From: Eledone cirrhosa
Taxonomy: Eukaryota
Length of the DNA: 64,000 bases
NCBI GenBank assembly: GCA_964016885.1
Contig: OZ024740.1
Span: forward strand, 89,342,001 to 89,406,000
Reading direction: 5' to 3'
Shown here: positions 1-32,641 of the stretch, piece by piece
Layout: each line of letters opens with the position of its first letter
Numbering within the stretch: the first letter of the stretch is position 1
The notes under the pieces: generated by a model
What the model was told of the DNA's origin: nothing
The model's input: only the letters and a program-made list of their open reading frames with translations
The model's database searches: none
Made by a program: the position numbers and the translations under genes

Positions 1-528
1 ACTATTCAGACATTGAATATTTACGTTCTGTGTTTTTTGTTTTGTTTTGTTGCTACACATAACTTACTTAAATCCTTGACATATTGATATCAATACATTC
101 GGAGATATGTATGTCTATAATAGTTTTGGAATCATTACATTTATTCTTTACATATTTACCCGTGTCGTCAACTGTTGCTGCCTATAGCATTTATGTGATA
201 ACTATGTTATTATTATATTGGTTATAATGTGTGAGCTTTTAAATATTTATTTTTATATATCCTACCACAAATAAATATGAGAAAATATACCCTTCTTTGT
301 AACATGATATAGATTATTTTGTATAGTAAAGCGATAAGAGTTAATGTATTTAAAGAATTCAAACTAATAAAGAACATTGATCGTTTGTAGTGTACAACAT
401 ATATATATATTGGGGGACGAGAGTGTAGCATGTTTGTATATTAATATGTGTTGTATAAAATACTATACATCTCGTCTCCTCTTAGCATTTCGTACGATAT
501 TGTCTTAACATTATTTTTGCTAACATAT

Positions 529-25672: not shown

Positions 25673-26188
<516 letters not shown>

Positions 26189-26618
26189 AAAAAAAAAATG
26201 TATATATATATATATATATGTATTGGTAAACGGAATAGAAAATGCTGACAAATTGTTCACAGTTGAAAAATGGTTTAATTAGGAATAAAAGAGTATTAGT
26301 GATTGTATGGGTTAGTATTCAGTTGTGGTTTTAAGTTTTTAAGTTTTTACCGGTTGCGCATTTCTAAATGCTTTTCAAAAATAATTTTGAGATAGAGTGT
26401 CCGTGCTGTTTGCTCTGATCTGATTAGTTTTGGGAATTCTACCTGTTTTTATGTTAAAAAAATGGCTCCAGCGTTATTTTTGTGTTGCAAAAATGCTTGT
26501 GGTCAAAACAAATGTGAATGTAAAAAGTTGATTTTGCGCCAAGACTGTTTTTATGTTAAAATGTTAGAAAAGTGGCTCCAGCAAAAATTATGGTCAAAAC
26601 AATTTTGATTGGTCGGTA

Positions 26619-27727
26619 CCAACCCAGGAAAAACCAACGAAGAACCATGTGAGATTGATTCACACAAAATGAAAATTCGAACAATTCCAAAATGGAACAA
26701 ATCCCTCAGAGACAGAAAGTTCTCATTCTGGAAGATGATACAAAATCACAACAAAGCAGAGATATATGAAAAATGGCTTAACTCAACCCCTCTAACTCTC
26801 CCCCGTAAACTACAAATAAAGTCCATTCCAAATGAACCCGAACCTCAAAGACACCTTAGGGAAAGAATGGCATTGGAAAAGATGAAGACAGAAATTGAAC
26901 TTCTTAAACTGAGGGCCCAGACAAATGAGGAAAAAATCAAAACCATCGATGAAGCGATCCTCCTGGAAATCAACAACAAAACTGAAGGCCCCAAGGTAGA
27001 GAAGATCTCCAAATTATGGAAAGGGGACTGCAACAGAGAAGAACTGAAATCCCTTCAACGCTGGGAAAAAAGTGCCGCTTGGTTCCTACACTATGAATCG
27101 ACTTTTCAAACGGATTACACCTCCAATAACCCGTTCATAAAAATAGGAAAACCCATAACTGAACCGCACAACAACTTCTCAAACCCTCAAGCCTCAAACA
27201 AACGAAGAAGGAAGCACCACACCGAAGATGAACTTCCCAACCTCGCTACCATAAGAAGGAACAAAAACCCAAGAAATCATCTCCCCCAGAATGACATTTA
27301 CAACTTTCCCCCTTCAAGGAGACACCATACCAAATCACTCAACTACTACGCGGATGCCTCATCGTCAAACATAGGGAAAAGATACCACCGCCATGATAGA
27401 TGCAACAACTTCCCCGCCTCAAGGGGACAGCAAGGTAATTACCATTTTCTCAACTCTCACTTCCACAATACACAACAAACCCACACCACACGATACAACC
27501 AACAACGTAGGCCACTTATAACACCACAATACAACATGGCACATAAAAACACACACCCATACTCGCAGTACAGGAACACCCCATTCAATCTACAACCACC
27601 AACCCGAACCACATTTTACAACAACAAGGAATATAACAAACACAGGAGACCACTTAACATCAGCAGACAACCCCTCTACCCCAACCATTTTTTAGACACA
27701 GCACACAGATACAGGCAAACAAAATAA
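26619..27727 (+). CDS. PLE ORF1 (5'-truncated): helical/coiled-coil-like N-half plus basic N/H/R/P-rich disordered tail
   Basis: About 370 uninterrupted codons starting at the inversion junction. Heptad-like ERMALEKMKTEIELLKLRAQTNEEKIKTIDE. Overlaps ORF2 at 27658-27727. Confidence 0.75.
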
Positions 27728-30012
27728 CACAAGACAGGGAGAAGAAACCGATAGTAATAAAAATTATCAATCTTACTAGTGCAGAACCAACACCCAACCT
27801 TATCAACTTACTCTCCAAAGGTCTTAAATTCACACCGACCCCACTACGTCCTAACTACTATGAAATGAAGGAAGACATCACAGACTTCTGTAGAAAGTTA
27901 CGACTTAGTGAACAACTATTCGACCAGTACAATGAGGATGAATCATTAGCCAGAAATAGAAGCAATTACACCCCTTCAAAAGGTAGAAACAAAATCCTGG
28001 ACGAATTCTGTGAACACATCACAAACTTCCCTTACCAACACTTGCACAGACAAAAACACAAGCCAAACCTCAACAAGAAAGAATGGGGAGAATTAAATAG
28101 ATTAAAAACCGACAGAACCATTACAATTAAAGAGGCTGATAAAGGGAGTACAGTAGTCCTAATGGAGACAGAATTCTATATCAACTTAGCGCTCTCCACT
28201 TTGGAAAACGAAACATACTACGAAAAGGCTGAACACTACAATCAACAGAAAATTATGAGAAACCTAAAAACTCTAATCAACCAATACAAAGAAGGACTCA
28301 CTAACAAGGAATTCAGCTTCATCACAGACTTCACAAGTAAATCCAGCCTTTTCTACGGTATCCCTAAAGTACATAAAAGCGAATCAATCAGTAAGGCATG
28401 CAAGGAAGCCACAGACATAGTCATCAATGTCCCCTCACCCAATGATCTCAAATTAAGACCTATAATAGCAGGCCCCGCTTGCGAAACGCACCGTCTTAGC
28501 AACTTCATTGATACCCTTCTCAAACCCTTCCTCAAGCACATCAAAAGCTATATAAGGGACGACCTAGATATGCTCAATCACCTCCCTAATATGCCACTTT
28601 CTGAACAAACCCTACTAGTGACGTTCGATGTAGTCAACCTATACTCCAACATCCCCCACAACCTAGGAATAGAAGCTATCCAATTCTGGCTGGATAACTT
28701 CCACAATGAACTCCCACAACGCATCACAAAAGAATTCGTGATAGAGGGACTCAAATTTATCTTGGAGAACAATTACTTCGTTTTCAATAACAAACCCTAC
28801 AGGCAGAAATCTGGGACCGCTATGGGAACGAAAACAGCCCCTACGTATGCCAACCTAGTCATGGGATACCTGGAAATCACCCTCTACACTAAAGTCCTAA
28901 ACAAATTTGGAAACACCCTCCACTTACACATTGAAAGGAACTGGAAGCGATATCTTGATGATTGCTTCATCCTTTGGCACGAAAACATCGAAAAACTTAA
29001 AGAATTTCACACCCTTATAAATGGGCTCAACACAAATATTAACTTCACGATGGAATACAGCCATCAACAACTCCCCTTCCTCGACATCCTCATTAAGATC
29101 CATAACAAAAAAATAGAAACAGACATATACTACAAGCCCACAGACTCCAAGCAATACCTCCCCTTCAACTCTTGCCACCCTAGACACGTTAAAATTAATA
29201 TTCCCTACAACTTAGCCTAGAGAATCTGTACTATAGTCTCCAATAAAAACATCTGCTACTTACGGCTACAAGAACTAAAGGACACACTCATAGGCAGGGA
29301 CTACCCTGCATCACTAATTGACAATGGAATCCAACGTGCCCTAAAACTCAGTACCCAGGACCTTAGACACCCTAAAGTAAATCAACCAAAACTAAAAGCT
29401 CTTCCATACATCTCCACACACAACCCCCTCAACAACGAGGCTTTTGACACCATCCTCCAGAACATCCCTGTATTGAAAAAGGACCATAGAATGAACCAAA
29501 TTATACGAACACACGATATCATAAAGAGCAAAAGACAATCCAAGTCAATGAAAAACATCTTAACACATGCCAAAGTACTGCCAACCACAACAACGAAACC
29601 CACAGTAAAAAAATGCGATAGACCCAACTGTGGCGTTTGCATCAACCTAATAGAGGGTTCGGAATTCTATTTCAAAGATGGACAACGTTTTATAGTAAAA
29701 CACAATTTCACATGTGCATCGGAAAATGTAATATATGTATTAACTTGTTCAGGTTGTCGAGAACAATACATAGGCCAGACCAATGGCAGCCTCCGCCAAC
29801 GCATGACTGTCCATAGATCCCAAATTAAAATACGGGAATACAGGAAAATGCCACTGAGTGAACACATTGATACCTGTGCCGCCCAAAATCATCCCAACTT
29901 CAGAATCTTTCCCCTCTACAAATTTAATGATAATGCCACCCACACCCAGCGCATCAGCAAGGAATCTTACTTCATTAACAAATACGGACCCCGTCTAAAC
30001 ACTTCTCCCTAA
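27658..30012 (+). CDS. PLE ORF2: RT plus C-terminal GIY-YIG endonuclease (Neptune-type), one in-frame TAG
   Basis: Frame open from 27658: KIINLT..LLSKGLKFTPTP, ADKGS, FYGIPKVHK, RPII, FDVVNLY, GTAMGT, RYLDD. TAG at 29218-29220, then the same frame continues to CDRPNCGVC, NVIYVLTCSGC..YIGQT..RQRMTVH..H. Confidence 0.92.
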
Positions 30013-30518
30013 GACGAACCCACAACATACACACGTCAACATACATACCTACATCAGCACACATCTCTACCCACATATAAACACAATGACACACGTAAAC
30101 ACACATGCTCTATGGTGCAATACAAAAAAATATATGTGCATATATATGTATGTATATATGTATATATATATATATATATATATGTAGTGAAAATATATAT
30201 ATGTGTGTGTGTGTGTGTATATATATATAGTGAATATCATTTCACACCTTTTATTGTTAAGATTGTTGATGTTCTATTAAGAGAACCGATTTTACTGAAA
30301 AAATCGAATAATGTACACCATTTTACCAGGGGGGAAAAATACTGGTCCACCCACACACGCACACACACACACACACACACATATATACACAAACGCATAC
30401 ACACGCGTACATCAACATACAAAGAGACTTATACACACACACACACACGCACTTCTCCGTATAAGACAAAAGCTGAAAAATATCTTTTGACCTTCGAATG
30501 ACTCTGCTGTGTGTATGT

Positions 30519-30552
<34 letters not shown>

Positions 30553-30634
30553 ATCTTAATAGCCATTTGACACACATCGCTGGTGGCTATTGTCGCAGCA
30601 TCAAACACCTTACTACTACTACTACACACACACA

Positions 30635-30701
<67 letters not shown>

Positions 30702-30726
30702 TTGTTATGAAAGAGTCATTTCTCAA

Positions 30727-30961
30727 TCTTGGCGCAAAACCAATTTTTTATCCACATGACCTCTACCGACCAATCAAAATTGTTTTGACCATAATTTTTG
30801 CTGGAGCCACTTTTCTAACATTTTAACATAAAAACAGTCTTGGCGCAAAATCAACTTTTTACATTCACATGACCTCTACCGACCAATCAAAATTGTTTTG
30901 ACCACAAGCATTTTTGCAACACAAAAATAACGCTGGAGCCATTTTTTTAACATAAAAACAG
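30727..30961 (+). repeat. ~110-125-bp tandem duplication in the pLTR with CCAAT boxes
   Basis: Two units beginning tcttggcgcaaaa (30727, 30838), each containing gaccaatca. Confidence 0.75.
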
Positions 30962-31222
30962 GTAGAATTCCCAAAACTAATCAGATCAGAGCAAACAGCA
31001 CGGACACTCTATCTCAAAATTATTTTTGAAAAGCATTTAGAAATGCGCAACCGGTAAAAACTTAAAAACTTAAAACCACAACTGAATACTAACCCATACA
31101 ATCACTAATACTCTTTTATTCCTAATTAAACCATTTTTCAACTGTGAACAATTTGTCAGCATTTTCTATTCCGTTTACCAATATATAATAACTTGTGTGT
31201 TACACCTCTATTCTTTTAACTA

Positions 31223-32641
31223 TATATATGTATATATATATGGTGTCACTTCCAACCATCCAAATCAACCACAGGAGGTCAAATCCTATGTGGGTATGGA
31301 GGAGGGCCGATTTAAGAAACGCTTCCTGAACCACCAGTCGACCTTTAGGTACCAGGACAGACGTTCATCCACGAAACTCACGAAACACATATGTCCCTTA
31401 AAGTCTCAAGTATAGACTACTCCATTGAATGGAAAGCCATCACTAAGTCCAAGTCATACTCAAGGGCCAATCCGTCGTGTGGACTATGAATTGAAGAACG
31501 TATAAATATTCTAAAGGGATTACGCAATAGCGATTGCCTAAACTCAAGAATTGATTTCTTTATACGTTGTCCACACGTCTGGCAACGCCTCTTACATAAC
31601 TACAAAGCTTCGGATTGAATTACAACAACATCCTATTTTTCTTATCAACTAGAAACTTTCGAACTTTCGCAGTTATCTCCCTTACAATTCTGGCACGCAA
31701 TTTAGTATTGCCTGAGTGAAGTGACCGTTTCGGCGCATGCACATTCGTACGGTTGTCCTTCCTGTTCCGTATAACCACGTCCATTACGAGCTTAGGATCC
31801 GCTAAGGTGAAACAATTGTTCTGGGTATGGTGAACTAACTGTTGTGTAACCACTTCTATATATCGGCTGTGCGAATGATTTTAGGCATCGTCTCTATGTG
31901 TTGGTACTTTAACGATAGTTATAGCTCTGGTTCATCCAAACTATTGAGCCCTCTGCCACACATGTCGAAGATTGTTTATCCTTATTTCGTGGGCCGAGAT
32001 TCTGATTCCCGATTATTTACTTGTATTAATTTCCAGGCTTTAGCTAACGACCAGTTATTTTTATTGATTTTTTAGCTGATCTTATTGACTGATGAATAGT
32101 TCTTGTTTATTTTAACACGTCTGTTGAGAACTCTTATTCGATATGTGATTTTTTGTATTCTTACAAAATTTACACTTACTGAATTCTTTCACCAAATATA
32201 GGGGTTCCTTCCCTTGCTGGACTACACGTGCGTTCAGTAATGGGTCCTCCTGTATTTTTGAACGAAACATCCGCTGAGAAAGCAGTCTCCTCGTTCATCT
32301 CTTTAATAGAAGTCAGATATATTTTTTTATGTGGGCTGACAGTAATTGATTAAGGAACTGCAGAAACCCAAAAAGCTAGAATTTAACATCCTTCTAGCGG
32401 GTCCTGGGGAGTTTTTACATTCATTTAATTTATTGATTTATTAATTTATTATTTGAGTGACCCGAATTTTCCTGGTCGTTCTTTTCGGCTGTGCGAATGA
32501 TTTTAGGCATCGTCTCTATGTGTTGGTACTTTAACGATAGTTATAGCTCTGGTTCATCCAAACTATTGGGCCCTCTGCAACACATGTCGAAGATTGTTTA
32601 TCGTTTTTTCGTGGGCCGAGATTCTGATTCTCGATTATTTA

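Follow-up and report, generated by a model that had tools for sequence, protein, structure and literature searches.

The stretch of the Eledone cirrhosa genome analysed here (64,000 nucleotides (nt), contig OZ024740.1, positions 89,342,001 to 89,406,000 of the forward strand; called the window below) contains a single Penelope-like element (PLE) at approx. 26217-31227. The host genome measures 3.0 Gb, and those homologues of the element's reverse transcriptase (RT) that carry names are molluscan. The element is a two-ORF (open reading frame), endonuclease-bearing Penelope-like retrotransposon, whose parts are collected in the table. ORF1 is open from 26609 to 27727 and is composed of a conserved all-helical domain (approx. 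26669-27150), a low-complexity N/H/Q/R/T tail and the residues H-F-L followed by ten codons. The RT frame is open from 27658 to 29220 and resumes at 29221-30012 past a TAG (29218-29220), which is private to the window copy and absent from the other copies, a 784-codon open ORF2 frame being present in many of them. In the window copy the inverted pseudo-long terminal repeat (pLTR) takes the place of the ORF1 start, the 5' truncation lying at approx. 26619, whereas in the full-length copies of the family (family A) the pLTR runs on into the ORF1 ATG and a 436-amino-acid (aa) ORF1 starts 28 nt after the pLTR. The window copy, being 5'-truncated and interrupted by the private TAG, is dead.

Features of the Penelope-like element, in window coordinates.
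Feature	Positions	Strand	Basis or remark
Pseudo-LTR, inverted and 5'-truncated copy	26217..26618	-	99-100% complementary to 30764-31187
ORF1, 5'-truncated in the window copy	26619..27727	+	ORF, full copies, homologues
Slippery heptamer T TTT TTA, X XXY YYZ register	27688..27694	+	letters, copies, homologues
ORF1 stop TAA with C at +4, candidate terminating-ribosome roadblock	27725..27728	+	starts 31 nt (10 sense codons) past the heptamer
ORF2 (RT and GIY-YIG endonuclease), -1 frame, lacking Met upstream of the N-terminal motif	27658..30012	+	784-codon open frame in many copies
PLE N-terminal motif KIINLT...GLKFTPTP	27760..27843	+	upstream of the first in-frame ATG (27865)
RT core	28450..29016	+	Pfam RVT_1, E 1.1e-7
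CX4CxxC zinc-finger-like linker, Neptune/Nematis type	29614..29640	+	definition from PMC8557442
GIY-YIG endonuclease	29728..29997	+	Pfam PF01541, E 1.7e-6
3' untranslated region with microsatellites and 3' pseudo-LTR (~30764-31227), (TA)n end	30013..31227	+	common to other copies to ~31227

The preliminary description of this DNA had proposed that the two ORFs are joined by a programmed frameshift, and the letters agree with its reading of the junction. ORF1 reads CAT TTT TTA GAC, which puts the heptamer into the X XXY YYZ register; the RT frame lies -1 relative to ORF1 with an overlap of 70 nt, and it has no Met through the whole N-terminal motif, the G, K, F, T, P, T and P of which are invariant in our alignment (A3). 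The presence of the heptamer alone is weak evidence, since shuffling the overlap 100,000 times gave some XXXYYYZ heptamer in register in 11.9% of cases; a U6 in register came up in 0.008%. The T TTT TTA run is the sole run of at least six T on the sense strand in the 3.1 kb of family A examined.

A junction pattern with free length between two flanks gave 385 matches in the genome, and the junctions of 100 of these were counted: 86 were identical, five had a same-length substitution, five had lost and four had gained one nt. The -1 offset is kept in 91 of the 100, and the alternative that the family consensus is one continuous ORF, with a 1-nt indel in this copy, fails on these copies. A single-copy indel is likewise ruled out by them, and a contig from an independent sequencing run also spans 27610-29042 without a gap; the depth of the sequencing-run contigs matching the element rises toward 3', as expected of genomic copies. 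Since the nine length-variant copies, which carry 9-183 substitutions, share subfamily variants across both length classes, the frame-fused copies are, judged by these variants, not a lineage of their own. In 113 alignments the variants common to at least three copies were mostly synonymous (synonymous to non-synonymous 9 : 3 in the ORF1 domain, 49 : 15 plus one stop in ORF2), while the private ones were not (26 : 101 and 170 : 410, respectively), and by this measure purifying selection acts on both ORF1 and ORF2 in the lineage that transposes.

The same genome has four further families (B to E, family E being young and abundant), in all of which T TTT TTA is in register and the RT frame lies at -1. 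The heptamer is followed by GAC in B, GGG in C, GGA in D and ACG in E, and the ORF1 stop comes after 20, 19, 31 and 23 codons, respectively; the ORF1 identity among families A to D is 30-43%. A sixth family was not found in 20 further stretches of this genome, which yielded only a D subfamily (81% identical, same heptamer). An RT-seeded scan of other records gave 80 metagenome loci and five from genome contigs, 64 of which were examined for an overlapping upstream frame. Eleven endonuclease-positive (EN+) type elements among them (L201-L205, L212, L216, L217, L224, L232 and L281) show an in-register T TTT TTA or T TTT TTG, and the T run is exactly six in 16/16 EN+-type elements, i.e. families A to E and these 11. 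Both the in-register heptamer and the -1 offset are thus conserved in family A, in the four same-genome families and in the 11 other elements.

In a 37-row RT tree, the rows of which are loci without reference PLE RTs of the named clades, the 12 two-ORF families placed in it form one side of a branch with an SH-aLRT value of 100. One of them is L370, whose junction is a non-canonical T TAT TTT C; single-ORF relatives such as L207, L209 and L211 lie outside. Also outside the two-ORF branch, the same register is found in elements with an esterase-like ORF1 (L222, L226, L228) and in endonuclease-less (EN-less) ones (L227, L266), with A AAA AAC in L227, U UUA AAC in L228 and G GAU UUU in L266; T TTT TTA also occurs in this set. 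ORF1-seeded scans of viral and metagenome contigs and an RT-seeded viral scan gave no matches, and no further genome with the element was met among 184 genomes related to G002, the record of L370.

At the protein level, 620 clusters were homologous to the ORF1 domain at E 0.001. The best 150 of them are no longer than 541 aa, and the best 120 RT homologues measure 451-803 aa, which favours separate frames. Out of 152 homologue proteins, the 102 with at least 60 residues past the domain were used for an analysis of the tails, the other 50 being too short. F-L occurs within the last 60 residues of 76/102 tails (shuffle mean 5.6, maximum 15; L-F control 6). The residue before it is M, W, Q, K or E in 0/76 cases as compared with a background of 20.7% (p 2e-8), and since it is never one lacking a U-ending codon, this points to a constraint at the nucleotide level, a codon ending in U before F-L.

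What the first reading had missed is the fixed distance of ten codons from the heptamer to the ORF1 stop. In family A the stop is found at +31 with C at +4 in 72 of 73 junctions, the remaining one being cut by the locus end. Among the 76 homologues the stop comes exactly ten codons past the heptamer in 27 and earlier in only two, while approx. 3% and 51%, respectively, would be expected under a random-stop model. The ten intervening residues are not conserved, and the distance from the heptamer to GLKF is 110-254 nt in the ten-codon families. The same spacing is present in L226 and L227, members of two other RT lineages, in the latter with A AAA AAC. The +4 base was examined only after the idea of a ribosomal roadblock at this stop had been formed and the enrichment of C at +4 in disomes had been met in the literature; it is C in seven of nine ten-codon families (A, L202, L204, L212, L217, L224, L227) and in 0/10 families with a longer distance (B, C, D, E, L201, L203, L205, L216, L281, L370; Fisher p 7e-4, or 2e-3 with near kin merged). 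L222 and L228, with the stop one and zero codons past the heptamer, have C at +4 too.

Other accounts of the stop position were considered. A stop-start AUGA at +30 came into question since W (TGG) is codon 11 in families B and C and in four close homologues; it was dropped as a general rule, since the P0033/P0204 pair has TAG there and Met elsewhere and most families known at the DNA level have no AUG. That the stop is a passive product of the K-I-I-N motif is true for B, C and D and false for the ten-codon families. A periodicity of the stop distance at 20-23 and 30-33 codons was seen by eye, but both kinship and the K-I-I-N motif confound it, and no claim is made on it.

The lack of an obvious hairpin downstream, already remarked upon in the preliminary description, is real in family A: the minimum free energy is 0 for +1..48, no stem of at least four pairs starts at +3..+11, and longer windows after the heptamer gave z values of -1.66 and -0.46. 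Of a canonical -1 frameshift signal, family A has the in-register heptamer within the 0/-1 overlap and has no stem-loop or pseudoknot 5-9 nt downstream. A stem scan of 17 elements found only L217 and L226 at or below 5% of shuffles, L224 and L281 being at 6%, and hairpins were present only in some families (L212, L224, L201). L227 has no RNA structure after the heptamer either, family E has neither a stem nor the ten-codon spacing, and a conserved pseudoknot as stimulator was not found across the families examined. Families B, C and D have in common an RTGGC 26-60 nt past the heptamer that could pair with GCY at +8 to +12, in a weak stem not above shuffles.

The best explanation of the junction, with a probability of roughly 85% from the conservation described, is that ribosomes undergo a programmed -1 frameshift at U UUU UUA and so make an ORF1-RT-EN fusion. 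Most ribosomes would terminate at the ORF1 stop and yield the helical, presumably ribonucleoprotein-forming ORF1 protein, and a minority would slip back by one base and produce ORF1-RT-EN. The gag-pol-like strategy that had been suggested, with much ORF1 and rare fusion protein, is supported by the clade-wide in-register heptamer, the -1 overlap and the lack of an early AUG. More tentatively, frameshifting may be helped by collision with the ribosome terminating at the ORF1 stop. A ribosome dwelling on a weak UAA-C or UAG-C stop would block its follower as UUU-UUA moves from the P/A to the E/P sites, in which case the terminating ribosome would replace the pseudoknot, and families without the ten-codon spacing would depend on U6A slipping unaided or with the help of a hairpin nearby. 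It is possible, at slightly below even odds, that we deal here with a natural collision-driven frameshift signal, in which the heptamer precedes a weak stop by one 80S length (ten codons), an arrangement that recurs with different heptamers in three PLE lineages. In published data the 5' ends of stop-codon disomes map 46 nt upstream, the queue has a spacing of 30-33 nt (trailing A site), and C is over-represented at +4 (10.1101/710491). When a ribosome stalls at UGA in E. coli reporters, the one behind it shifts to -1 more often, most strongly with nine codons in between (PMC6815119). Ten codons as against the bacterial nine would suit the larger 80S ribosome.

A number of observations weigh against this interpretation. 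The tool used to search for fused ORF1-RT long forms itself describes that search as weak. As for the roadblock, 49 of the 76 homologues and four of the five same-genome families (19, 20, 23 and 31 codons) are without the ten-codon spacing, and since the young and abundant family E has neither the spacing nor a stem, a roadblock is not necessary. L226 and the inferred P0033/P0204 pair have A at +4 despite the ten-codon spacing; the same base is seen in L232, which is a decayed relative of L204 and was left out of the separate count. In B, C and D the Ile-Ile codons of ORF2 dictate the T at +4. A hairpin accompanies the spacing in L212 and L224, and little ribosome queuing is reported at mammalian stop codons in the accessible text of PMC13341110. 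Finally, the ten-codon state is clustered on the ORF1 tree, a quick version (11 changes versus 23 when shuffled, at least seven forced by starred branches), so that binomial p-values overstate independence.

Within the frameshift model, the ten-codon stop may therefore be no roadblock. The spacing could be inherited, or it could aid the refolding of a downstream structure as proposed for SARS-CoV-2, U6A slipping alone or with a local hairpin; we hold this for a serious possibility that falls a little short of an even chance, an estimate that concerns the spacing only and is not additive with those for the other rivals. It is favoured by the clustering on the tree and by family E, by the hairpins of L212 and L224, which end just before the stop, and by the influence of stop position on pseudoknot refolding, through which a stop near a frameshift site was explained in the available portion of PMC8168617. 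On the other side, an exact distance is held over unconserved residues and variable linkers in three RT lineages with two heptamer types, family A and L227 have no structure to refold, and the enrichment of C at +4 speaks against it as well.

Explanations without ribosomal frameshifting appear improbable. Transcriptional or RT slippage on T6 could add one U in a minority of the RNAs and give a single fused ORF; the T6 run does vary in length in the nine copies mentioned, as compared with 0/100 at an A6 control run in ORF1 (Fisher p 0.003), which also counts against frameshifting. However, these copies are mostly old and scattered over subfamilies with gains about equal to losses, and the contrast of T6 with A6 is confounded by copy age. 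Codon register is of no consequence to a slipping polymerase, but the homologue tails preserve it; the T6 run is constant among the EN+-type elements, whereas other PLEs use different heptamers, and slippage leaves the ten-codon stop spacing unexplained. Equally improbable is a separate translation of ORF2 in which ribosomes would reinitiate after termination or start at a non-AUG codon close to the end of ORF1, U6A serving as a cis signal. AUG-independent reinitiation is the case in LINE-1 ORF2; an in-frame AUG lies approx. 30-40 nt past the heptamer in family C, L224 and the P0012/P0175 pair, and many gene-called RT homologues start with Met a few residues before KIINLS. Gene callers, however, accept GTG and TTG starts too, there is no AUG before GLKF in A, B, D, L202, L204, L212, L216, L217 and L281, and separate initiation explains neither the strict XXY YYZ register nor the alternative heptamers.

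The remaining alternative, that TTTTTTAG is a 3' splice acceptor joining an upstream exon to ORF2, is the least probable of all. A G-starting codon follows F-L in 56/76 homologues, a branch-point-like CTTAAC lies approx. 38 nt upstream in family A, and introns are known in PLEs according to the consulted parts of PMC8557442. As a general explanation it nevertheless fails, for the AG is absent in five of the 16 elements (E, with T TTT TTA ACG, L202, L216, L217 and L281), family E belonging to the same genome as family A, and the codon after F-L does not start with G in 20/76 homologues. In family A itself no donor scoring at least 6/9 is in phase to join ORF2, and the top-scoring one (8/9) keeps to the frame of ORF1.

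The ORF1 domain is predicted as all helix in an AlphaFold model (pLDDT 86.7). It had no Pfam match, no Foldseek match in the PDB at E 0.001 and no Atlas hit, and no similarity was seen between ORF1 and the N-terminus of the single-ORF L209. A donor-like CAG/GTAGAA is found in the pLTR (L002 oriented 170-470; window 30955-30970) together with an AG just before the ORF1 ATG, which could mark an intron in the 5' untranslated region as in Drosophila Penelope. The hammerhead core CUGANGA...GAAA was not found in window 29901-31300, the 3' end of family A, where a degenerate motif may remain; hammerhead cores are present in the relatives L203, L212 and L281 from other hosts. An Rfam scan of six loci returned no hammerhead even in L203, thus it is insensitive. 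Just upstream of the element (25871-26077) lies a 99-bp near-perfect palindrome, approx. 80-89% like the pLTR of the element and probably the end of a related PLE family, and directly after it (31240-31500) a decayed fragment with GIY-YIG-like wording YVGMEEGRFKKRFLNHQSTF, possibly an older PLE hosting the insertion.

Among the other elements, ORF1 of L222, L226 and L228 ends in a GDSN esterase-like domain (a label given from the motif by eye), with a -1 overlap and the stop 1, 10 and 0 codons past the heptamer, respectively. A second class of junctions ends in xAT TTT C (L266:2945-2968, G GAU UUU C; L370, G002:C197, U UAU UUU C), to which P0020, P0043 and P0114, ending D/Y-F-R in place of F-L, may belong. 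Individual copies of family C (L121-L139, L316-L356) often have between 1 and 16 extra C in a C7 run approx. 33 nt past the heptamer, fusing or breaking the frames; the expansions differ in length and look independent, and may come from RT stuttering or be an assembly artefact. L281 (G001), L282-L285 and L370 (G002) and P0187, P0188, P0226, P0254 and P0266 are animal PLEs in bacterial metagenome-assembled genomes, filed in public databases as symbiont proteins, which is likely host contamination.

The preliminary description had stated that EN+ PLEs have a single ORF. The abstract of PMC8557442 says so, while its Fig. 1 legend allows an optional ORF1 separated by a frameshift with a pseudoknot, the clade being unnamed in the text accessible to us. 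In the accessible portions of further papers, esterases are described in Neptune-like PLEs (PMC5408684), a killifish Neptune has two non-overlapping ORFs and no frameshift (PMC12602865), and two-ORF PLEs are described as EN-less (PMC6431247). Nothing on such junctions was met in the parts available of PMC3846280, PMC4700185, PMC5009743, PMC7544508, PMC13712778, PMC13282606 and PMC10294476. In the literature searched there was no programmed frameshifting in EN+ PLEs, although an earlier account of a frameshifted Neptune ORF1 is still possible, and no natural stop-codon-spaced frameshift signal.

These results define a widespread (620 ORF1 clusters), recently active EN+ PLE clade with probable gag-pol-like expression and an unannotated helical ORF1; the single-ORF picture of EN+ PLEs is revised, and the annotation of such elements as N-terminally truncated RTs is explained. 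If the collision model is true, RT output would rise with ribosome load, and this would be the first natural case in the literature searched of a mechanism shown so far only in engineered bacterial reporters. For the question whether programmed recoding uses ribosome collisions or just tolerates them, the families offer a natural series (0, 1, 10, 12 and 17-31 codons, with or without C at +4, with or without a hairpin), which makes it testable by reporters.

As to known systems, the element has in common with the Neptune/Nematis EN+ PLEs the GxKF and DKG motifs of the RT, the CX2-5CxxC linker, the C-terminal GIY-YIG, the pLTRs with an inverted 5'-truncated copy and the (TA)n flanks (accessible parts of PMC8557442). 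The linker occurs in 9/9 two-ORF families examined and is shared with Nematis and Naiad. Neptune differs in the single ORF given in that abstract, as compared with a separate helical ORF1 overlapping the RT at a slippery heptamer in this clade. The name Neptune, used in the preliminary description, fits by the linker and the GIY-YIG and does not fit by the single ORF or by the hammerhead motif of the Neptune pLTR, the core of which was not found at the 3' end of family A; since two overlapping ORFs are present in the family and in the clade, we filed the element under a Neptune-type two-ORF clade rather than canonical Neptune, an assignment supported by motif affinity only. The Athena/Terminon elements are similar in having a helical ORF1 upstream of the PLE RT and a frameshift join; Athena is said to have been described as the clade with a coiled-coil ORF1 joined in this way by Arkhipova et al. 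in 2017. They are, however, EN-less and telomeric and have a frameshift pseudoknot, whereas in this clade a GIY-YIG is present, copies are spread over many contigs and lie internally, and, with no pseudoknot found, the stop spacing is conserved instead. HIV-1 gag-pol has the same heptamer U UUU UUA, often followed by G, and presumably the same structural-to-enzyme stoichiometry (PMC4373837, in the part available), but it uses a stem-loop stimulator, which family A does not have. In the E. coli collision reporters (PMC6815119) the heptamer precedes a slow stop by a set number of codons and there is no RNA structure, as would be the case here; they are artificial and bacterial with an optimum of nine codons, whereas the signal proposed here is a natural, eukaryotic candidate with ten.

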